A DNA stretch of 51,736 nt from Candidatus Cloacimonadota bacterium (GCA_027064005.1 JAMOQM010000051.1:1-51736); one strand, 5' to 3'. Shown: positions 15,479 to 23,568, numbered from the stretch's first letter. Notes: a model not told the origin generated them from the sequence alone. Translations and numbers: made by a program.

Positions 15479-17146
15479 CTATTTATGGTAAATATTTTTA
15501 ATTGCATCAATATCGACATCTTCTTTTTTATATTTGACATTAAAGAATTTCTCAAAATATTCAAAGATATAATTACTATCTATCAAAACATCCAAAATAC
15601 TAGAATCAATTTCATTATTGCTTGCCATTTTTGCCAAAATTGTTAAAGTTTCCATGATTGTCTTACCTTTTTTATAAGGTCTATCCGTAGCAGTTAAGGC
15701 TTCAAAAATATCGGCGATTGCAATAATCCTAGCCGGAAAAGGAATTTGCTCTGCCGTATAGTGAAAAGGATAACCTTTACCATTCAATTTTTCATGATGT
15801 AAAGAAGCATAAATCGGGATATTTTTGTATTTTTTCGGGAAAGTTAATGAGGATAAAATATTGTAGCTGGTTTGAGCGTGTTCCTGCATTTTCCCAATTT
15901 CATCTTTAGTGAGCGTACCTTTCCTTACCGATAATTTTTCATATTCATCATCTGTTAAAATCCGATATTCTGTATCATTAGAGAAATATCTAAATTTATA
16001 TATTTCCTCTAATTCTTGAACAAATTCATCGCTCATAAATTCAGCTCCGCTGTTCATTATATTAATAAAAACTTTAAATATTTCAATCTCTTTCACTATT
16101 TTATCAAATTTTTTTAAAGGTTCATTTTTCAGTTCAGCAATTTCTTTATCCTTTTTCACAATATTGATAATTAAGTTACACCTTTCTTCAACAACAGAGA
16201 TTCCATCAATAACCGCCTCTAACTTTGTTGATTTATCCATAATAAATTCCGGAGTAATTATTTTCCCAAAATCATGCATTAAAGCAGCTAATCGAATTTC
16301 TTGAATTTCATCTTGAGAAAATGTTTTATTTGGGAAAATCTTTTTATCATTTTGAATAACGTTCACTAATTCTTTGGAAATAACCCCAACTCTTTGGATA
16401 TGAGCACCGGTATATTTTGATTTCCGGTCAATAGCCTGAGCAATAGATGAAACAAATTGAAGAATAAGACTTTCCAACCCTTTAATTAATTGGCGGTTGT
16501 TTAAAGCAATTCCAGCTAAAGAAGCCAATGAGTTTATGACATGAATATCTTCATTGGAAAAAACATCAATTTCGCCATTTTCATTTATTGGATTTATCAA
16601 TTGAATTACACCAATTACATCATTTTCATGACTTTTTAGCGGTAAAGCCAATACCGATTTCGTTCTATAATTATTTTTTTTATCGTATCGTTTTGTTCCG
16701 GTAGTTACAAATTGAGTTTGTTTATAAATATCATCATAACACTTAATTTCTCCGGTATGAGCAACATAAGCAGCTTGAGTCTTCATCAAAGGAGAAGAAT
16801 TCTCGTCAAATAAAGGAATTGGCATCCAATTCAAATTTCCTTTCAAACGAGAAAGATTGATCTCTAAAGTTTTGTTATAGACAACTTCAAAATTCAAATA
16901 TTTTTTATTCTCAGAAAGCGTATAAATTGTTGCTCCATCAGCATTTGTAAAAAATAATGATTCCTGAAGAATCATATCAAAAATATCATCCAATTCTTTT
17001 TTTGAGGAAAGTGAAAGTCCAATTTCAGTCAATCTATCAATATGTTTAAATTGTCGTTTTGAAAAAGTATTTATTTCTTTGACTACATTATTTAGCATCA
17101 GATTCAGTTTTTTATTACTACTCAGATTAATCATTTTTTTCTCCAT
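15479..17146 (-). CDS. GAF + HD-GYP cyclic-di-GMP phosphodiesterase
   Basis: GAF (YRTKSVLALPL...GVIQLIN); HDFGK, HHEKLNGKGYP, ADIFEALTA.DRPYK. Confidence 0.85.
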   Translation of the reverse strand: MEKKMINLSSNKKLNLMLNNVVKEINTFSKRQFKHIDRLTEIGLSLSSKKELDDIFDMILQESLFFTNADGATIYTLSENKKYLNFEVVYNKTLEINLSRLKGNLNWMPIPLFDENSSPLMKTQAAYVAHTGEIKCYDDIYKQTQFVTTGTKRYDKKNNYRTKSVLALPLKSHENDVIGVIQLINPINENGEIDVFSNEDIHVINSLASLAGIALNNRQLIKGLESLILQFVSSIAQAIDRKSKYTGAHIQRVGVISKELVNVIQNDKKIFPNKTFSQDEIQEIRLAALMHDFGKIITPEFIMDKSTKLEAVIDGISVVEERCNLIINIVKKDKEIAELKNEPLKKFDKIVKEIEIFKVFINIMNSGAEFMSDEFVQELEEIYKFRYFSNDTEYRILTDDEYEKLSVRKGTLTKDEIGKMQEHAQTSYNILSSLTFPKKYKNIPIYASLHHEKLNGKGYPFHYTAEQIPFPARIIAIADIFEALTATDRPYKKGKTIMETLTILAKMASNNEIDSSILDVLIDSNYIFEYFEKFFNVKYKKEDVDIDAIKNIYHK

Positions 17147-17345
17147 TATAAAATTTCTTTATCTCAAAAAAAATCTTAATTATTATTTTTTTTACAGCCT
17201 TTATGTCAAACAAATTATATCCTGTGATTAATAGATAGAGAACCTTTTCCTGAATATAATTTTTGATATTATACTTTTTTACTTAGATATTTTCACCTTT
17301 CCCTGAAAAATAAATTTACATATCTTATTCTAAAATAAAATTTAG

Positions 17346-17373
17346 TTTAGTTTTCAAAAATTTGTAACGATAG
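17346..17373 (+). promoter_or_regulatory. Putative sigma-28 (FliA) promoter of the orf-flagellin operon
   Basis: TTTAGTTT-N12-AACGATAG versus consensus TAAAGTTT-N11-GCCGATAA; RBS AGGAG follows. Confidence 0.4.
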
Positions 17374-17389
17374 AGAATTAGGAGTAAAA

Positions 17390-18169
17390 ATGAATTACAA
17401 TGATACTGATTTTATTAAAGATGTTTCCGAATTAACAAAAATTAAATTTGTCGGAACTGATAAAGATGCTCCGAAAAAACGTAAAAATAAAAGGAATCAA
17501 CATCCCAAAAAAGAAAAGAAAGAATCATTTGCTTCTGAATTAGAAGAAGACTTAAATAAAGAAACCGGCGAAAAAAATAATCTAAATATCGGAATTAAAG
17601 TTCTTGAAAAAAGAAATTCGGAACTATCGGCATTATCGGATATGATTAGGAATGAAAATTATGACGAAAATTTGATTCAAAGGAAAATCTTAAAAAGTGA
17701 TAGAGATTTATACGAAATAAGTTCCGATTCACCGTTATTACCTAATGAAAAAGATTTAGAAAAAGATGACTTGGAAAAATTACAGCAATTAGATAGATAT
17801 TACGCACGTTATGAAAAGCTTACAAATGAACAAAAAGAAACAATTATTAAAGAAGATTTTGACCTATTAAATAAACTATTCTCCGAAAAAAACACAATTT
17901 TAGCAAAAATACAAACCCTACAAAATACAATCAATTACGAAAAAATTGCCCACTCTGAAGAAAAAAAAATTAAAGCAAACATCATCCTTTCCGATATTCA
18001 TAATAGGATGAACGGAGTTATTCAAATCGAAGACGAAAATAACTCCAGATTATGTTCTTTAAAAAATGAAATGAAAGTTGCTCTGGGAAAAATCCATAAA
18101 GGTTCCCAAATGATTGCTAAGTACGGCAATAAACATATTTCATCTCATTTTATAGATAAAAAAACATAG
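17390..18169 (+). CDS. Hypothetical protein; C-terminal half resembles FlgN/FliT-type flagellar chaperones
   Basis: Helical LTxEQKE.I..EDFD.L..L..EK pattern; directly upstream of the flagellins. Confidence 0.45.
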   Translation: MNYNDTDFIKDVSELTKIKFVGTDKDAPKKRKNKRNQHPKKEKKESFASELEEDLNKETGEKNNLNIGIKVLEKRNSELSALSDMIRNENYDENLIQRKILKSDRDLYEISSDSPLLPNEKDLEKDDLEKLQQLDRYYARYEKLTNEQKETIIKEDFDLLNKLFSEKNTILAKIQTLQNTINYEKIAHSEEKKIKANIILSDIHNRMNGVIQIEDENNSRLCSLKNEMKVALGKIHKGSQMIAKYGNKHISSHFIDKKT

Positions 18170-18181
18170 ATTTTTTTAAAA

Positions 18182-18210
18182 GGCAAGGATGCCGAATTTT
18201 TCAAGGAGGA
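18182..18210 (+). promoter_or_regulatory. CsrA-binding hairpin + SD of flagellin 1
   Basis: GGCA-AGGA-TGCC stem-loop, then CAAGGAGGA. Confidence 0.75.
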
Positions 18211-18213
18211 AAA

Positions 18214-19188
18214 ATGTCATTGAATGTTCATAATAATATGAGCGCACAAATCGCTTCGTATTATCTTCAGAAAAACTACAACAGCATGGGAAAATCCATC
18301 GAACATTTATCTTCAGGATTAAGAATTAACAACGCCGGTGATGATCCTCAAGGAAAAGCCTTAAGCGAAATGTTAAAAAGTAGAGCAAATGTTTTAGATA
18401 AAGGCATAACAAATATCCAAATGGCAATTTCAGTTTCACAAACAGCAGAAGGTTCTTTAAGTATAATTGATGAAAAACTAATCCGAATGAAAGAACTCGC
18501 AGAACAATCAGCAACCGGAACTTATAACAATACTCAGCGATTAATGTTAAATTCAGAATTCAATGAAATGGCTGCTGAAATCGATAGAATCGCCAATAGC
18601 ACAAATTTATCCGGATTAAAATTATTGGATGGTAATATTTCAACTTCAACAAAATATACTGCAAATAACGGTTGGTACAAAGCTGATTCCGATTCTTATT
18701 CGACCGGAGATTCAAAAGATGTTTATGCCCATTTTACTAAAAACGAAAAATTAAAAGTACATTTCGGACAAACAAACAGCAGTGCCGAAGATTACTACTA
18801 TATTCATTTAAAAGATATGACAACAAATGGCTTGTTTCACGATTTTATTGATCCAACTGATTCAACCAAAAATACAATTTCAAAAGTCATGGCAATTTCT
18901 TCATCAGCTTCAGCTCAATTAGCTCTTGAACAAATTAATTCTGCCATGGTTTATAAGGAAGAAGAGCGTTCCCATTTGGGAGCAATTCAAAATCGTTTAG
19001 AAACTTCGTTAAATCATTTAGAAATAACTAAAGAACAAGTCGAAAGAACCGACTCTATATTATCGGATGTAGATGTGGCGACAGAAATGTCGAATTTCAC
19101 AAAATTCCAAGTTCTTACTCAAAGTGCAACGTCGATGTTGGCTCAGGCAAACGCCCTGCCACAGATGGTTTTAAAACTTTTAGCTTAA
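18214..19188 (+). CDS. fliC: Flagellin (divergent paralog 1)
   Basis: LSSGLRINNAGDD, QTAEG, LGAIQNRLE, DVDVATEM, LAQAN. Confidence 0.92.
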   Translation: MSLNVHNNMSAQIASYYLQKNYNSMGKSIEHLSSGLRINNAGDDPQGKALSEMLKSRANVLDKGITNIQMAISVSQTAEGSLSIIDEKLIRMKELAEQSATGTYNNTQRLMLNSEFNEMAAEIDRIANSTNLSGLKLLDGNISTSTKYTANNGWYKADSDSYSTGDSKDVYAHFTKNEKLKVHFGQTNSSAEDYYYIHLKDMTTNGLFHDFIDPTDSTKNTISKVMAISSSASAQLALEQINSAMVYKEEERSHLGAIQNRLETSLNHLEITKEQVERTDSILSDVDVATEMSNFTKFQVLTQSATSMLAQANALPQMVLKLLA

Positions 19189-19283
19189 GAATTATTTAGA
19201 CCTTTATACAAGAACATACACGTGCATAGCCAAAAATTAGGTTAGAAGGCTCTCGTATTATTCATAATTAATACAAAAAATAA

Positions 19284-19320
19284 ATGCAAGGATGCATAAA
19301 AAAAACAATTCAGGGAGGAT
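19284..19320 (+). promoter_or_regulatory. CsrA-binding hairpin + SD of flagellin 2
   Basis: ATGCA-AGGA-TGCAT stem-loop, then CAGGGAGGA. Confidence 0.75.
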
Positions 19321-19323
19321 ATT

Positions 19324-20313
19324 ATGTCTTTAGTAATTAACCATAACCTTATGTCTATGAACACTGCGAGAAATTTAAACAATTCGTATAATAGTTTGGC
19401 AAAATCCGTACAAAGATTATCTACAGGTATGAGAATCAATTCTGCTGCCGATGATGCCGCCGGATTGGCTATTAGAGAAGGAATGAGATCTGATATTTCA
19501 GCACTGAATCAAGGTGTAAGAAATGCTCAAGATGGTATTTCGATGATTCAAACTGCAGAAGGAGCTCTCGGGGTAGTTGATGAAAAACTAATTCGTATGA
19601 AAGAGTTGGCAGAACAAGCTGCAACCGGTACTTATACAAACGCTCAAAGATTAATCATTCATTCGGAATTTTCTGCAATGGCTGCAGAAATAGACAGAAT
19701 CGCAACTTCCACAGATTTCAACGGTGTAAAATTATTGGACGGTAACGTTTCCGTAGCCGGAAATGGTGGTCAATGGACAGCCAATAATACATGGAGTGCA
19801 ACAGAAGGATTGTGGACAAATAGTAGCGGATGGAAAGAAGTTACCGGCAATGCAACCAATGGCAATATTACAGGTGGAGTGAAAATTCACTTTGGTGCCG
19901 GAAATAATCGTGCCGAAGATTATTACTTTGTTCGTTTAGGAGATATGAGAACGACTTCATTATTCGCAAGTAGCGGAACAACTGTCAGCTCAGCAACTAG
20001 TGCAGCCAATACAATTGCGGTATCAACACAACATGCAGCTCAAATAGCTCTTGAACAATTGAATACAGCAATGACAAGAAAAGAAAACATGCGAGCATCA
20101 CTTGGTGCTGTTCAAAATCGTCTTGAAAACACTATTTCGAACATTTCAATTCAGTCTGAGAATTTACAAGCTTCCGAGTCTCGTATTTCTGATGTTGATG
20201 TAGCAACAGAAATGACGAATTTCACAAGAAATCAAGTATTGACTCAATCAGCTGTAGCAATGCTTTCCCAAGCAAACTCATTACCTCAAATGGCATTGAG
20301 ATTACTCGGATAA
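19324..20313 (+). CDS. fliC: Flagellin (paralog 2)
   Basis: LSTGMRINSAADDAAGLAI, LGAVQNRLE, SRISDVDVATEM, LSQANSLPQ. Confidence 0.95.
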   Translation: MSLVINHNLMSMNTARNLNNSYNSLAKSVQRLSTGMRINSAADDAAGLAIREGMRSDISALNQGVRNAQDGISMIQTAEGALGVVDEKLIRMKELAEQAATGTYTNAQRLIIHSEFSAMAAEIDRIATSTDFNGVKLLDGNVSVAGNGGQWTANNTWSATEGLWTNSSGWKEVTGNATNGNITGGVKIHFGAGNNRAEDYYFVRLGDMRTTSLFASSGTTVSSATSAANTIAVSTQHAAQIALEQLNTAMTRKENMRASLGAVQNRLENTISNISIQSENLQASESRISDVDVATEMTNFTRNQVLTQSAVAMLSQANSLPQMALRLLG

Positions 20314-20339
20314 ATTAGAAAAACAGCATTTAATTATAC

Positions 20340-20364
20340 AGGGGAATAAAAAATTCCCCTTTTT
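20340..20364 (+). terminator. Intrinsic terminator after flagellin 2
   Basis: AGGGGAAT-aaaaa-ATTCCCCT-TTTT. Confidence 0.8.
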
Positions 20365-20413
20365 AATATAAACAATTTAACAATTATGAAAACGAATACT
20401 ACGAAAGTCAGTA

Positions 20414-20422
20414 TGTTATAAT
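20414..20422 (+). promoter_or_regulatory. Putative extended -10 sigma70 promoter of flagellin 3
   Basis: TG-T-TATAAT, downstream of the fla2 terminator and just 5' of the structured leader. Confidence 0.45.
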
Positions 20423-20438
20423 TTTATGACGTGTAGGT

Positions 20439-20560
20439 TAGTTCCTCATTTTTTTGGTTCGGTAAAATAGTCTGGTAAAACAATAGAAATGCTGAGATGA
20501 TAAATTAAGGATTAGTCCTTAACTTGGCAAGGATGCCACTAACCGATCAAGGAGGAATTA
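20439..20560 (+). promoter_or_regulatory. Structured 5' leader of flagellin 3 (anti-SD long hairpin with embedded CsrA site)
   Basis: Nested pairings 20439-47/20552-60, 20454-63/20542-50, 20468-77/20534-41, 20490-96/20523-29, 20505-11/20516-22. Alternative CsrA hairpin TGGCA-AGGA-TGCCA at 20525-38. Confidence 0.7.
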
Positions 20561-21549
20561 TGTCACTCGTAATAAACCACAATATGATGGCCATGAATTC
20601 AGCAAGAAACTTAAACAAGTCTTATAACAGTTTGTCTAGGTCAGTTCAACGCTTATCAACAGGAATGAGAATCAATTCGGCAGCAGATGATGCAGCAGGA
20701 TTGGCAATTCGTGAAGGTATGCGTTCGGATATCGCGTCATTGAATCAAGGTGTAAGAAATGCTCAAGACGGTATTTCATTGATTCAGACGGCAGAAGGTG
20801 CACTCGGTGTTGTTGATGAAAAACTCATTCGTATGAAAGAGTTGGCTGAACAAGCAGCAACCGGTACCTATACTAATGCTCAGAGATTAATTATCCATTC
20901 TGAATTTTCTGCAATGGCTGCAGAAATTGACAGAATCGCAACTTCAACGGATTTTAACGGTGTTAAGTTGTTAAACGGTAATGTTTCCGTAGCAGGTAGT
21001 GGAGGTAGTTGGACAACCAACAATACATGGAGTGCAACTGAAGGAATGTGGACAAATAGCAGCGGATGGAAAGAAGCTAACGGTACTGCAGCCAATGGAA
21101 ACATAAAAGGTGGAGTAAAAATTCACTTTGGAGCAGGAAATAACCGTGCAGAAGATTACTATTTCGTAAGAATTGGCGATATGAGAACAACATCATTATT
21201 TGCAGCAACCGGAACAGCTGTTAGTTCGGCAACTTCAGCGGCAAATACAATTGCAGTTTCAACTCAACATGCAGCTCAAATGGCTCTTGAACAATTGAAT
21301 ACGGCAATGACAAGAAAAGAGAACATGCGTGCTTCTCTCGGTGCTGTTCAAAATCGTCTTGAAAACACTATTTCAAACATTTCGATTCAGTCTGAAAATT
21401 TACAAGCTTCCGAGTCTCGTATTTCTGATGTTGATGTAGCAACAGAAATGACGAATTTCACAAGGAATCAAGTATTGACTCAGTCTGCTGTAGCAATGCT
21501 TTCACAAGCAAACTCGTTACCACAAATGGCACTTAGACTTATCGGATAG
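20560..21549 (+). CDS. fliC: Flagellin (paralog 3)
   Basis: Near-identical to paralog 2. Start set to ATG 20560 (SD GGAGG, MSLVINHN) rather than TTG 20524. Confidence 0.95.
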   Translation: MSLVINHNMMAMNSARNLNKSYNSLSRSVQRLSTGMRINSAADDAAGLAIREGMRSDIASLNQGVRNAQDGISLIQTAEGALGVVDEKLIRMKELAEQAATGTYTNAQRLIIHSEFSAMAAEIDRIATSTDFNGVKLLNGNVSVAGSGGSWTTNNTWSATEGMWTNSSGWKEANGTAANGNIKGGVKIHFGAGNNRAEDYYFVRIGDMRTTSLFAATGTAVSSATSAANTIAVSTQHAAQMALEQLNTAMTRKENMRASLGAVQNRLENTISNISIQSENLQASESRISDVDVATEMTNFTRNQVLTQSAVAMLSQANSLPQMALRLIG

Positions 21550-21588
21550 TTAGGTTCGGAAGAGATAGCACTATCACAGTAAAATTTC

Positions 21589-21617
21589 TCAAAAGGAGAA
21601 ACTCTTTTGAACATTTT
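21589..21617 (+). terminator. Possible weak terminator after flagellin 3
   Basis: TCAAAAG(G)AG-aaa-CTCTTTTGA followed by ACATTTT. Confidence 0.45.
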
Positions 21618-21640
21618 GGAAACACTCTGTAAAAAGTCTA

Positions 21641-21669
21641 TTGACAAAAAACTATTCGGCGAGTAAATT
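21641..21669 (+). promoter_or_regulatory. Sigma70 promoter with no downstream ORF
   Basis: TTGACA-17 nt-TAAATT. Confidence 0.65.
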
Positions 21670-21674
21670 AAGAT

Positions 21675-21797
21675 AAAGAAAACGAAGTAAATGTGATCTT
21701 GGCAAATCTACTGTGGCAATGTCATAGGGAACTATGATGTTGAGAGTGCTAGGCTAACCGAACCAGATGGGTAGGTACAAATCTGCCCATCATTTTT
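21675..21797 (+). ncRNA. Putative ~120-nt small RNA complementary to the flagellin-3 leader and 3' UTR
   Basis: Promoter, internal 11-bp hairpin with GGAA loop (21717-42), terminator, no ORF, and GC-richer than its flanks. Confidence 0.6.
21766..21797 (+). terminator. Intrinsic terminator of the putative sRNA
   Basis: GATGGGTAGGT-acaa-ATCTGCCCATC-ATTTTT; U-tract on the + strand only. Confidence 0.75.
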
Positions 21798-21826
21798 AAA
21801 TATGCACAAAAAATGTTCTAATGTTT

Positions 21827-22723
21827 TTATATTAGTTTTTTCTTAAATAAATGTATTTTATCGTAAACGACAAAACCATTTCGAGAAAAAGCTTTAATCA
21901 TAGGATTGTTGCAAAAATCTGTTTCAGCAATAATCCTTTTTTTATTTTTTAACTTTTCAATTGAATGTAGTATTAGTTCGTCGATAAATCTATTTCCTCT
22001 CATTTTAGGAATAATCCCGATATAACTTATTGAACCGGTGTCTTTATTTTCTATTTGAGAAATTATTAAGCCCACCAATTTATTTTTCCAAAAAGCCAAT
22101 TCCCATAAATTTGGAATAAAATTTTGAGATTTCAACTCTTTAAAATACTCTATTGAAGATTTTTTTGAGCCATATTTTTTATGATATTCAATATCTTCAT
22201 TATCCAAGGAATTTGAACTAATTTTTCGGAGGGTCCGGATAAAAGTTTCTTCTCCAACAAGATTAATGGATTTAAAATCAAAATTTTCAAAATCACTTTT
22301 TTGTCTTGTTTCTAAAATTAATTTCAATTTAGTTTGAGTTTTTTTGAAATTAGAAGCTTCTAAAATTTCCATAATATTTTCAAAGAAAGGAGTATTACTT
22401 TCAGAAAAATAAAATTCTATTTCACTAAATTTATTTTTGCTTAAAATATTATTAATAGCTTTCATTAAAAAAAACAACCCGTAAAGCTTTAAAAATTTCT
22501 TATCGATTGAAGCAAAATTATAAATTAAAGCGATTTTATCGTTTTCCGGTTCAACACAAAAAATCAATCCTAGAATCGGTTTATTTTCTAAATAAAATGT
22601 TAAGATTAAATCATTTTGGGTATAAGATTTATCAATCAAATAATTTATTTCACTTTTAGATATCACTTTCGCTAAAAAAAGATAATCTTTAATTTGACCT
22701 GTTTTAATCAGAGAATTTTCCAA
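21827..22723 (-). CDS. GNAT family acetyltransferase
   Basis: C-terminal ISYIGIIPKMRGN and N.PM..AF...GF motifs. Confidence 0.7.
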   Translation of the reverse strand: MENSLIKTGQIKDYLFLAKVISKSEINYLIDKSYTQNDLILTFYLENKPILGLIFCVEPENDKIALIYNFASIDKKFLKLYGLFFLMKAINNILSKNKFSEIEFYFSESNTPFFENIMEILEASNFKKTQTKLKLILETRQKSDFENFDFKSINLVGEETFIRTLRKISSNSLDNEDIEYHKKYGSKKSSIEYFKELKSQNFIPNLWELAFWKNKLVGLIISQIENKDTGSISYIGIIPKMRGNRFIDELILHSIEKLKNKKRIIAETDFCNNPMIKAFSRNGFVVYDKIHLFKKKLI

Positions 22724-22950
22724 AATATTACCTCATATTCAAAATTATTTGGTTTCCATATTTACACATTAAATCAAACTATTTTGTGATTTCATCTGTC
22801 AAATAAATTTTCTATAATCTTACAGATAATGACAACGAAGACAGTTCAAAAAGAAATAGTTTATTAAATATATTGACGAGGAATTGCCAAATTGAAAAAA
22901 TAAATTAGTCTTGACGTATTTATAATACCAAAGTCAATTCAAAAAAATAT

Positions 22951-23568
22951 TTGGAGTTAATTATGGTTCAGGAAATCTTTAAAGCTTTCAGCAACGCAGT
23001 AAAATTAATCACTGAATTTACCTCTGACAAAAACAATATTCAAAAGACATTAGATATATCATTTGAAATTGCCGAAGCATTTAAGCGTGGCAATAAAGTT
23101 TTAGTTTGTGGAAATGGTGGAAGCATGGCAGATGCTGATCATTTCGCTGAAGAATTTACCGGTCGTTTTAGATCAAATAGAGAAGCATTACCGGTTATTT
23201 CTTTATCAAATTCCTCCCATTTAAGTTGCGTCTCAAATGACTTTGGTTTCAAATATGTTTTCGCACGAGAAATTGAAGCTTTCGGAAAACCGGGCGACAT
23301 TTTAATCGGATTATCAACAAGCGGGAATTCTGAAAATATTGTTTTAGCACTTAGAAAAGCACAAAAAATGGGATTAAAAACGATAGGATTATTAGGGAAA
23401 AACGGTGGAGAAGCGAGACATTTTTCTGATATGGGATTTATTATCCAAGGAGAAACATCCGATAGAATCCAAGAGGTTCACATGACAATTCTTCATATAA
23501 TAATTGAAGGTGTTGAGAGAATTTTGTTCCCTGAACTTTATCCTGTAAAAAATCAAGAGGTTGAGTAA
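22951..23568 (+). CDS. gmhA: D-sedoheptulose 7-phosphate isomerase
   Basis: CGNGGS.ADA.H...E, SNDFG, STSGNS, RIQEVH; likely start ATG 22963. Confidence 0.92.
   Translation: MELIMVQEIFKAFSNAVKLITEFTSDKNNIQKTLDISFEIAEAFKRGNKVLVCGNGGSMADADHFAEEFTGRFRSNREALPVISLSNSSHLSCVSNDFGFKYVFAREIEAFGKPGDILIGLSTSGNSENIVLALRKAQKMGLKTIGLLGKNGGEARHFSDMGFIIQGETSDRIQEVHMTILHIIIEGVERILFPELYPVKNQEVE

Follow-up and report, generated by a model that had tools for sequence, protein, structure and literature searches.

Several described systems bear on the element reported here, a candidate small regulatory RNA (sRNA) encoded at positions 21641-21797 of a 51,736-nucleotide (nt) stretch of DNA from a Candidatus Cloacimonadota bacterium (GCA_027064005.1 JAMOQM010000051.1:1-51736; hereafter the window), just downstream of an array of three flagellin genes. 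In the DsrA-rpoS system, an sRNA imitates the downstream arm of a leader helix by binding the upstream one. The hag-CsrA-FliW switch of Bacillus subtilis is not known to have an RNA partner. FliX of Escherichia coli is described as a sigma-28-dependent sRNA derived from the fliC 3′ end, which base-pairs with the fliC message and reduces the amount of it; FliX was found with its targets on Hfq by RNA interaction by ligation and sequencing (RIL-seq), and its predicted sites are internal to the fliC coding sequence (PMC10578931). CJnc230 (FlmE) of Campylobacter jejuni is described as lying directly 3′ of flgE and as arising both from message processing and from its own promoter, with experimentally established effects on its targets flgM, which is repressed, and Cj1387c (PMC11187230). 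Furthermore, enteric sRNA genes are reported to have been born from rearranged or degraded genes, that is, from pre-existing sequence (PMC4350180).

A sequence-only reading of the window had proposed that this unit, which lacks an open reading frame (ORF), encodes an sRNA that opens the leader of fla3, the last flagellin gene of the array. We find that the unit is one copy of an RNA family, and it is probable that this family is a small regulatory RNA that base-pairs in trans on the flagellar regulon, where it would have two classes of leader as its targets. The conservation of the RNA, its co-occurrence with flagellin, its position, structure, strand, and descent, and its complementarity to these leaders with covariation are observed directly in the genomes. 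The unit has the following parts.

21696-21791, + strand: the core that encodes the RNA in the window, one copy of the family
21641-21669, + strand: sigma-70-like promoter candidate, TTGACA-17-TAAATT (consensus scan, 10 of 12 matches), 27 nt 5′ of the core
21696-21716, + strand: 5′ unpaired block, anti-B, AUCUUGGCAAAUCUACUGUGG, antisense to flagellin-leader motif B
21717-21742, + strand: hairpin P2, with the conserved base CAAUGUC/GAUGUUG and a variable tip that carries the GGAA loop at 21728-21731 (fold and alignment, 8 pairs)
21746-21772, + strand: 3′ unpaired block, anti-A, GUGCUAGGCUAACCGAACCAGAUGGGU, with two antisense segments, 21749-21766 against flagellin-leader motif A and 21757-21772 against the flgI-operon leader site
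21766-21797, + strand: hairpin P3 (21766-21791) and a U-run, an intrinsic-terminator-like 3′ end (scan, 11 pairs and then ATTTTT)

The promoter-like sequence, the 11-bp hairpin with its GGAA loop, and the terminator are all present where the sequence-only reading had placed them, and the unit contains no + strand ORF of at least 20 amino acids, its sole ORF being one of 25 amino acids on the - strand. When 21676-21800 is folded, the GGAA-loop hairpin (21717-21742) and the terminator hairpin both form, the minimum free energy is -37.9 kcal/mol (z = -3.9), and 1 of 200 shuffles is as stable. A further helix, P1 (CUUGGC with GCUAGG), taken from the single-sequence fold, was rejected for being without compensatory support and being dropped by RNAalifold. 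The promoter candidate is weak on its own because such sites show no excess over shuffles in the consensus scan of the 6-kb region (24 observed versus 24.9 expected). In some relatives, a CTGACT-17-TAATCA-like sequence is read by eye at the equivalent relative position. None of the 4227 families of Rfam 15 matches anywhere in the window at the gathering score, in agreement with the sequence-only reading, which had recognized no known RNA family, and none of the five matches obtained at E <= 10 within 17000-23000 overlaps 21641-21797. No tRNA or tmRNA is called in the window. SRP RNA, 6S RNA, tmRNA, and tRNA were rejected as identities of the unit, there being no Rfam or ARAGORN match and the hairpin tip being variable. 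A small protein was rejected as well, given that the frame varies among copies and that changes in tip length are not multiples of three.

Among 40 relatives belonging to other families of the order, 14 match segment 21696-21771 at 74-82% identity, each with a single match. The exact two-block pattern was found in 18 contigs of the one-genome-per-species GTDB set, all of them titled Cloacimonadota or Cloacimonadales. In an alignment of 18 distinct RNA copies (A1, about 110 columns), the invariant blocks are AUCU(G/A)CUGUGGCAAUGUC and CUAGGCUAACCGAACC. In the region of anti-B, nearly all of columns 11-30 are invariant among these copies, and the word CTAGGCTAACCGAACC in the anti-A block is the same in 18 of 18. 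Covariation across orthologous loci, which the sequence-only reading had suggested as a check, is present in both hairpins: 98.5% of 330 cells in P2 and P3 are paired, and 8 pairs have changes on both sides, values for paired fraction or double changes that 0 of 500 shuffles reach, and slid controls are 31-52% paired. P3 has 12 pairs in the alignment, 7 of which are changed on both sides. The P2 tip differs wholly in sequence and length between genomes with its pairing retained.

The orientation of the RNA can also be read from these hairpins. A G-U pair occupies P3 columns 97:104 in 17 of 17 distinct rows, and P2 columns 29:57 are U-G in 11 copies versus U-A in 6. We therefore read the RNA from the + strand, because these conserved G-U pairs would be A-C on the opposite strand. 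On these comparisons the RNA is a new structured family with no Rfam match, known so far, as far as searched, only in flagellated Cloacimonadales. The sequence-only reading had put forward the GGAA loop as a CsrA site, but this loop forms part of the variable tip and none of the other copies has it, so that part of the proposal does not hold. The P3 loop GGGACGCU of most copies is missing from the window's copy. A CsrA sponge of the CsrB/RsmZ type was rejected, as several conserved GGA loop motifs, which such an RNA would carry, are not seen. The most divergent copy lies at G012:C19:20935-21047 (locus L054), where the P2 base CAAUG/CAUUG has become AAAUG/CAUUU, a compensatory change, and CUAGG has become CAAGG; in this genome, flagellin-leader motif B pairs with an extended 5′ block, UUGGCUAAAUCUGCUG, at 15 of 16 positions.

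The distribution of the RNA follows that of flagellin. A covariance model of the RNA (R1) has a match at E <= 2.8e-19 in 16 of 41 genomes of the order, and these are exactly the 16 that carry flagellin (PF00669). In the 25 genomes without flagellin, R1 finds none, except for one 22-bit match (E 0.006). A second set of 151 genomes, sampled evenly across the phylum and overlapping with the first 41, has the RNA in 14 of 15 flagellin-bearing genomes and in 0 of 136 others; the flagellin-bearing exception (G139) is a 91% complete assembly in 200 contigs.

The RNA occurs once per genome, just 3′ of the last flagellin gene. Of 33 loci, which hold 18 distinct RNA sequences, 31 have the RNA in the same orientation as the array, with a gap of 68-446 nt between it and the final flagellin gene, and the other 2 loci have <140 nt of upstream DNA. 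By this position in the 31 loci, the RNA would mark the 3′ end of the flagellin transcription unit, the two having one terminator in common. A scan of the window found no strong terminator between the fla3 stop at 21549 and P3, and where the spacer is long (260-446 nt), a separate promoter-like sequence precedes the RNA. The genes that follow the RNA show no relationship from locus to locus and occur in both orientations, being convergent in 5 of the 12 loci examined, window included; they encode a sigma factor, a glycosyltransferase, a sigma-54 activator, a radical SAM protein, endonuclease III, and, in the window, a GNAT acetyltransferase, which is the next gene after the unit and convergent with it. 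Because these genes are unrelated and on either strand, the RNA is not a downstream gene's leader, and a 5′ leader or riboswitch was rejected for want of a conserved same-strand gene downstream.

The strongest covarying site for the RNA is located away from the flagellin array. The best non-self match to the 3′ block in a flagellar context lies about 50 nt 5′ of flgI, on another contig. The sequence (G)CCCAU(C/U)(C/U)GGUU(C/U)GGU is found on the sense strand at 16 of 16 flgI loci (15 genomes) and on the antisense strand at none, 89-175 nt before the start of the Pfam match. This site is the complement of ACCGAACC(A/G)(G/A)AUGGGC(G), which comprises the linker and the P3 5′ arm. Over 15 genomes, the 16-nt duplex has 231 Watson-Crick pairs, 6 G-U, 1 A-C, and 2 other among 240 cells, so that 237 of 240 are paired. 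A variable dinucleotide within it takes four matched states in RNA and leader (AG/CU in 7 genomes, GG/CC in 3, GA/UC in 1, and AA/UU in 1), and 3 genomes show G-U intermediates only, with GG facing UC or CU. A third column changes from G-C to A-U in 2 genomes, for a total of 3 columns changed on both sides. When the genome labels are permuted, 0 of 10,000 permutations reach the observed Watson-Crick count (permuted mean 218.8). Thus, as would be looked for in a trans-acting sRNA, the RNA has a conserved seed that is complementary to sites at other loci with compensatory change.

In the single-contig genome G013, flgI is ~400 kb from the RNA. In the window's genome, it heads the tight operon flgI-flgJ-flgN-flgK-csrA-flgL-fliW. 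The sigma-54-like promoter sequence TGGCAC-N5-TTGC is seen by eye ~75-85 nt 5′ of the flgI site in 5 of 15 genomes, including the window's, and a GGGG...CCCC hairpin and U-run, also read by eye, follow the site in most of the 15. In the window's own genome, the flgI leader (contig C88, about 560-700, L052) has such a GGGG...CCCC hairpin and a run of eight U residues before the ribosome-binding site, an arrangement that resembles an attenuator. Separately, the motif GTCTCTCGTAAT(C/A)AAC is present ~70-90 nt 5′ of the RNA core in five loci (L010, L011, L014, L003, and L009), and one to three copies of it in reverse complement precede the flgI target site (L038-L040). This motif could be a further pairing block or a protein binding site.

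The second class of putative targets comprises the flagellin leaders themselves. The relevant features of the window are listed here.

18214-19188, + strand: fla1, flagellin (Pfam)
19324-20313, + strand: fla2, flagellin (Pfam)
20560-21549, + strand: fla3, last flagellin gene of the array (Pfam Flagellin_N and Flagellin_C), with the RNA in or after its 3′ untranslated region
20448-20498, + strand: 5′ part of the fla3 leader, with a degenerate motif A (core 20455-20463) and a degenerate motif B (20480-20498), the proposed target by pairing
20526-20559, + strand: remainder of the fla3 leader, with the GGCAAGGAUGCC hairpin at 20526-20537, the 3′ arm AACCGAUCAA at 20541-20550, and AGGAGG at 20550-20555 (sequence and fold)

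We read 39 flagellin upstream regions. In arrays with at least four visible genes, the last two or three carry leader motifs A and B, and the first one or two are without them. Motif A approximates GAUUGGUU(U/C)GGUUAGCCUAG, and motif B approximates ACAG(C/U)AGAUUUGCC, with ACAG(C/U)AGAUUU(GCC) as the form that anti-B complements in other genomes. These motifs are the reverse complements of the RNA's two invariant blocks in colinear order, and the claim that two arms of the RNA are colinearly antisense to the leader is therefore borne out in many genomes. The duplexes with the RNA have calculated energies between -22 and -33 kcal/mol at motif A and between -15 and -33 kcal/mol at motif B. In fixed windows, the motif A core has 145 Watson-Crick, 36 G-U, 1 A-C, and 5 other cells among 187, and motif B has 119 Watson-Crick, 12 G-U, 2 A-C, and 35 other among 168. 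Taken together, the non-Watson-Crick departures include 48 G-U versus 3 A-C.

The fla3 leader of the window is not the best example of this pairing. Read directly, 21696-21714 (AUCUUGGCAAAUCUACUGU) pairs with 20480-20498 at 16 of 19 positions, 2 of which are G-U, and 21757-21765 (ACCGAACCA) is the exact complement of 20455-20463 (UGGUUCGGU) at 9 of 9 positions, both as the sequence-only reading had reported. Scored on the family motifs, motif A has 11 Watson-Crick and 4 G-U pairs among 16 positions and motif B has 11 and 2 among 16, which is weaker than in most other genomes. The words CTTGGCAA and CTAACCGA are indeed shared by the unit and the 3′ arm of the fla3 leader, but the word CUUGGCAA is not conserved in other leaders. 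In an ungapped two-arm colinear scan of both strands of the 2.4-Mb genome (4,791,932 positions), the fla3 leader scores 55, a value that 108 positions reach, and it ranks only ~26th among distinct places. Because of this rank, the fla3 pairing alone is not convincing, and the support for it comes from other genomes. Nor does the idea of a single flagellin paralog as target survive, since the motifs precede the last two or three flagellin genes of an array and the flgI...csrA...fliW operon has, in its leader, a stronger site that covaries. Duplexes computed between each leader and the 3′ end of the flagellin gene before it reach energies equally low, from which, with a 100-nt partner that has no matched control, nothing is drawn.

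Other elements were noted in or near these leaders. A conserved hairpin, UAUAAGAC-NNNN-GUCUUAUA, lies between motif B and the GGA hairpin in seven loci (L003, L010, L016, L025, L027, L028, and L029), and a variant form of the UAUAAGAC/GUCUUAUA hairpin is present in three (L002, L012, and L019). Weak look-alikes of the RNA's target motif are found on contig C103 (1040-1790), in the form of three to four ~80-nt repeats with inverted arms (...CAACTAACAAATCGAAC...GTTGGTTTTGTTAGTCTAGTTCGTTG...) that flank a small ORF and precede an oxidoreductase-like gene.

A point missed by the sequence-only reading is that the RNA descends from the 3′ end of a flagellin gene, which was recognized through the following feature.

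20235-20335, + strand: 3′ end of fla2, a weak covariance-model match that is the basis for common descent

This is the only other match of R1 in the genome (E 5.8e-4; 26.1 bits and E 3e-5 in a second run), and nhmmer with the A1 profile matches it at E 4.9e-4, with the match ending at the stop codon. With this profile, 15 true copies come first, and the next 10 matches (E 4.9e-4 to 1.9) are all on the sense strand and end at flagellin stops. These 10 run colinear with the profile from positions ~4-15 to ~72-73, and in total 11 of 17 weak matches have this arrangement. Pairwise identity between the RNA and flagellin 3′ ends is 54-68%. Within the anti-B block, AAAUCUGCUGUGGCAAUG aligns with flagellin codons for ...QSAVAM, and GAUGGCAUUGAGAGUGCUAGGCUAA aligns with codons for ...QMALRLLG-stop, the GGCUAA being a relic of the Gly-stop codons. 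Judged by this alignment, the RNA is a relic of the last ~70 nt and the terminator of a flagellin gene. It is not merely decaying, because the ends of live genes are much less conserved than the blocks of the RNA and because covariation is present in its hairpins.

The flagellin gene ends themselves share a pattern: those at 20270-20313 and 21510-21549, and those of all other loci, read CAAAUGG...N...UCGGUUAA or CUCGGAUAA. These last codons resemble, with correct spacing, the sigma-28 consensus, TAAA-N15-GCCGATAA, and the leader of the next gene begins within ~20-40 nt of the flagellin gene end. Because of this resemblance and because the next leader is so near, each flagellin 3′ end may hold the promoter of the next unit, including that of the RNA in loci such as L002 and L007.

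Given these observations, it seems reasonable to propose how the RNA might act. An RNA of ~100-120 nt would be transcribed independently from a promoter that belongs to it, be released as the 3′ tail of the message of the last flagellin gene, or arise in both ways. The family would have arisen when the gene end described above, at the close of a tandem array, was retained as RNA. P2, whose tip is free to vary, and P3, as terminator, hold three invariant unpaired stretches. Some of these would pair with the two motifs, A and B, with which the leaders of the array's last flagellin messages begin, and another would pair with the flgI-operon leader site just ahead of its terminator-like hairpin. 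In this way the RNA would link the output of the flagellin locus to the operon for the hook-filament junction and the CsrA/FliW translation switch. Transcription of the RNA, its pairing in the cell, and any effect of that pairing are put forward here on the strength of sequence comparison.

The predicted folds of the leaders indicate what such pairing would displace. For ~15 of 20 flagellin leaders, the minimum-energy fold joins the 5′ half of motif A to AACCAAUC, which immediately precedes the ribosome-binding site; in the window, the 3′ arm AACCGAUCAA of the fla3 leader pairs with motif A. The RNA would compete with the AACCAAUC arm because motif A otherwise pairs with it. This is what the sequence-only reading had in mind in suggesting that the RNA mimics the strand it displaces, and the suggestion stands, as the leader motif complementary to the RNA is closed into a helix with the stretch next to the ribosome-binding site on its 5′ side. 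The mean unpaired probability of the ribosome-binding site in flagellin leaders is 0.46 when the motifs are free versus 0.52 when they are blocked (n=20). Such modeling suggests that the sign of regulation is not predictable from folding. Our guess is that remodeling of the leader 5′ ends would alter stability or termination and read-through rather than simply unmask the ribosome-binding site. A search for an Hfq gene (PF17209) gives 0 matches in this 100%-complete genome, which fits duplexes of 16-20 bp that need no chaperone. A more elaborate version of the proposal, which we entertain only tentatively and consider somewhat doubtful, is that a truncated flagellin paralogue, expressed from or along with the last flagellin gene, has turned into the RNA arm of a flagellin-CsrA-FliW checkpoint, such that it would set read-through of the flgI leader by pairing shortly before the terminator hairpin, bind the last flagellin leaders, and give a chaperone-free feedback of filament-gene transcription on its own translational regulators.

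Several results weigh against a trans-acting RNA of this kind. Per-genome z scores of the duplexes against shuffled RNA segments are modest, with medians of -3.5 (A) and -2.5 (B), and the counts for motif A are partly forced, as the anchoring pattern sets 9 of 11 positions. The fla3 pairing is weak in its own genome, where about 25 other places score equally. The permutation and shuffle counts overstate independence because the genomes are related. Furthermore, the flgI site pairs with bases of the RNA that also make up the 5′ arm of P3, so that this terminator hairpin would have to open. Folding with blocked sites gives no general effect: 6 flagellin leaders become more open, 3 less, and 11 are unchanged among 20, and for flgI leaders the values are 0.35 versus 0.43, with 6 that rise, 3 that fall, and 6 that are unchanged among 15. 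Finally, 15 sequencing runs were found, 2 of them RNA and both available as assembled contigs only; the RNA-library contigs cover only parts of the fla3 coding sequence, with nothing usable over 21600-21800, and give no verdict on expression, strand, or ends.

Other explanations for the locus must be weighed against the same data. The sequence-only reading had the RNA activate fla3 translation by freeing its ribosome-binding site and CsrA hairpin in the manner of DsrA and rpoS, which amounts to a fixed-sign, single-target sub-case of regulation in trans. The RNA does pair with a 5′ arm that is otherwise bound beside the ribosome-binding site in most leaders, and the freeing is predicted for the fla3 leader of the window, whose ribosome-binding site goes from an unpaired probability of 0.28 to 0.60 once both sites are blocked. 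However, it is not predicted in general: in most leaders the helix ends beside the ribosome-binding site and does not cover it, the mean for the 20 leaders is 0.46 free versus 0.52 blocked, and only the 6 noted above become more accessible. With several targets rather than one, and with the Hfq that DsrA needs not found, we regard this version as unlikely. There is a slim chance that the element instead works purely in cis, as a 3′ untranslated region of the last flagellin message that contacts its own 5′ leader for stability or translation, much as for icaR or hbs. The core starts about 55-75 nt after the flagellin stop in 5 of 15 loci (L002, L007, L012, L013, and L015), several further loci repeat this arrangement, no strong terminator separates fla3 from the RNA in the window, and the last flagellin gene of the array always has a leader with motifs A and B. 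What speaks for action in trans is that the second-to-last flagellin gene is also preceded by such a leader, that the best-covarying site belongs to the flgI operon at a distant locus, and that long-spacer loci have their own promoter-like sequence before the RNA.

A different kind of objection is that the shared motifs are double-stranded DNA sites, for example operators of a flagellar regulator, that face one way ahead of the flagellin and flgI genes and the other way where the array ends, and that the complementarity of the RNA is a by-product. We think this quite improbable, even though the motifs occupy fixed places near promoters and protein sites would suit the pattern of GTCTCTCGTAATCAAC, which some genomes have ahead of the RNA and which also stands, as one to three inverted copies, ahead of the flgI site. 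The copy at the end of the array sits between two covarying hairpins that fit the + strand only, and the motifs are not palindromic. The differences between partners are also those that RNA tolerates (G-U 6 versus A-C 1 for flgI, and 48 versus 3 for the flagellin leaders), and the four dinucleotide states at flgI track the RNA in a way that a protein site would hardly allow. Lastly, the homology to flagellin 3′ ends, which supply the 10 best nhmmer matches past the true copies, might indicate nothing beyond a functionless remnant of a truncated flagellin gene in decay. This is scarcely credible for an RNA that is present in 16 of 16 flagellated genomes, whose blocks are invariant over seven families while live flagellin 3′ ends vary freely, and whose hairpins show compensatory changes along with tip length changes that are not multiples of three. 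A regulatory RNA that pairs in trans with flagellin and flgI-operon leaders remains the reading we favor.

A GGA hairpin and a ribosome-binding site of the AAGGAGG type precede each of fla1, fla2, and fla3, and csrA and fliW are both encoded in the genome; by analogy with B. subtilis hag, the GGA hairpin is a putative CsrA site. Directly 5′ of the array, an ORF of 259 amino acids (17390-18169, + strand) has no Pfam match, and its relatives (36-43% identity) precede arrays in four other loci (L019, L021, L023, and L028), making it a conserved companion of the array. Also adjoining the array is a gene (15479-17146, - strand) for a protein with GAF and HD/HD_5 (HD-GYP-like) domains, possibly a cyclic-di-GMP phosphodiesterase in this motility neighborhood.

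In the literature on Cloacimonadota flagellin and Cloacimonetes small RNA, we found no report of such an RNA; Cloacimonadota is an uncultured phylum for which no regulatory RNA would have been described before this one. It would offer a rare case in which covariation between an sRNA and a target encoded elsewhere in the genome emerges from sequence comparison alone, and it shows clearly how an sRNA can originate as a piece of a gene from the very family that it would target. Three subjects that tend to be studied separately are also connected by it: tandem flagellin paralogues that have differing leaders, the CsrA/FliW switch, and a flagellar operon preceded by a sigma-54-like promoter. The duplexes of 16-20 nt, with their natural compensatory variants, provide sites that can be tested.

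Among the systems introduced at the outset, DsrA-rpoS shares with the Cloacimonadota RNA, as predicted for the latter, the binding of an upstream leader arm and the mimicry of the downstream arm, but here the helix mostly stops beside the ribosome-binding site, no general opening is predicted, and no Hfq gene was found in the window's genome. The hag-CsrA-FliW switch is echoed by the GGA hairpin and AAGGAGG in the flagellin leaders and by csrA and fliW in the flagellar operon; the difference is that in Cloacimonadota the flagellin locus encodes an RNA complementary to the leader of the operon that contains csrA and fliW. Relative to the enteric sRNAs derived from genes, as the cited account presents them, the RNA in this case comes from a parent that was itself a member of the target gene family, a paralogue, and it has been conserved in at least seven families.

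The closest parallels are with FliX and CJnc230, to the extent that the cited accounts describe them. Like FliX, the Cloacimonadota RNA is tied to a flagellin-gene 3′ end, would pair with flagellin message, and would belong with the late flagellar regulon, with other operons among its putative targets as well. FliX, however, is found on Hfq and has its sites in coding sequence, whereas no Hfq gene is found here and the sites are in 5′ leaders; moreover, FliX is the untranslated region of a live gene, and the Cloacimonadota RNA is the relic of a lost gene copy in another phylum. The RNA has no Rfam match, and it is set apart from FliX here by description. With CJnc230, it has in common a place directly 3′ of a flagellar structural gene and flagellar-regulator messages as targets, which are putative here, but CJnc230 follows the hook gene flgE rather than a flagellin gene, its sequence is unrelated, and its effects are experimental where those proposed here are sequence-based. 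Overall, the Cloacimonadota RNA would appear to work like FliX and CJnc230, but it belongs to no described family and differs from them in its origin, its putative targets, and its lack of Hfq.

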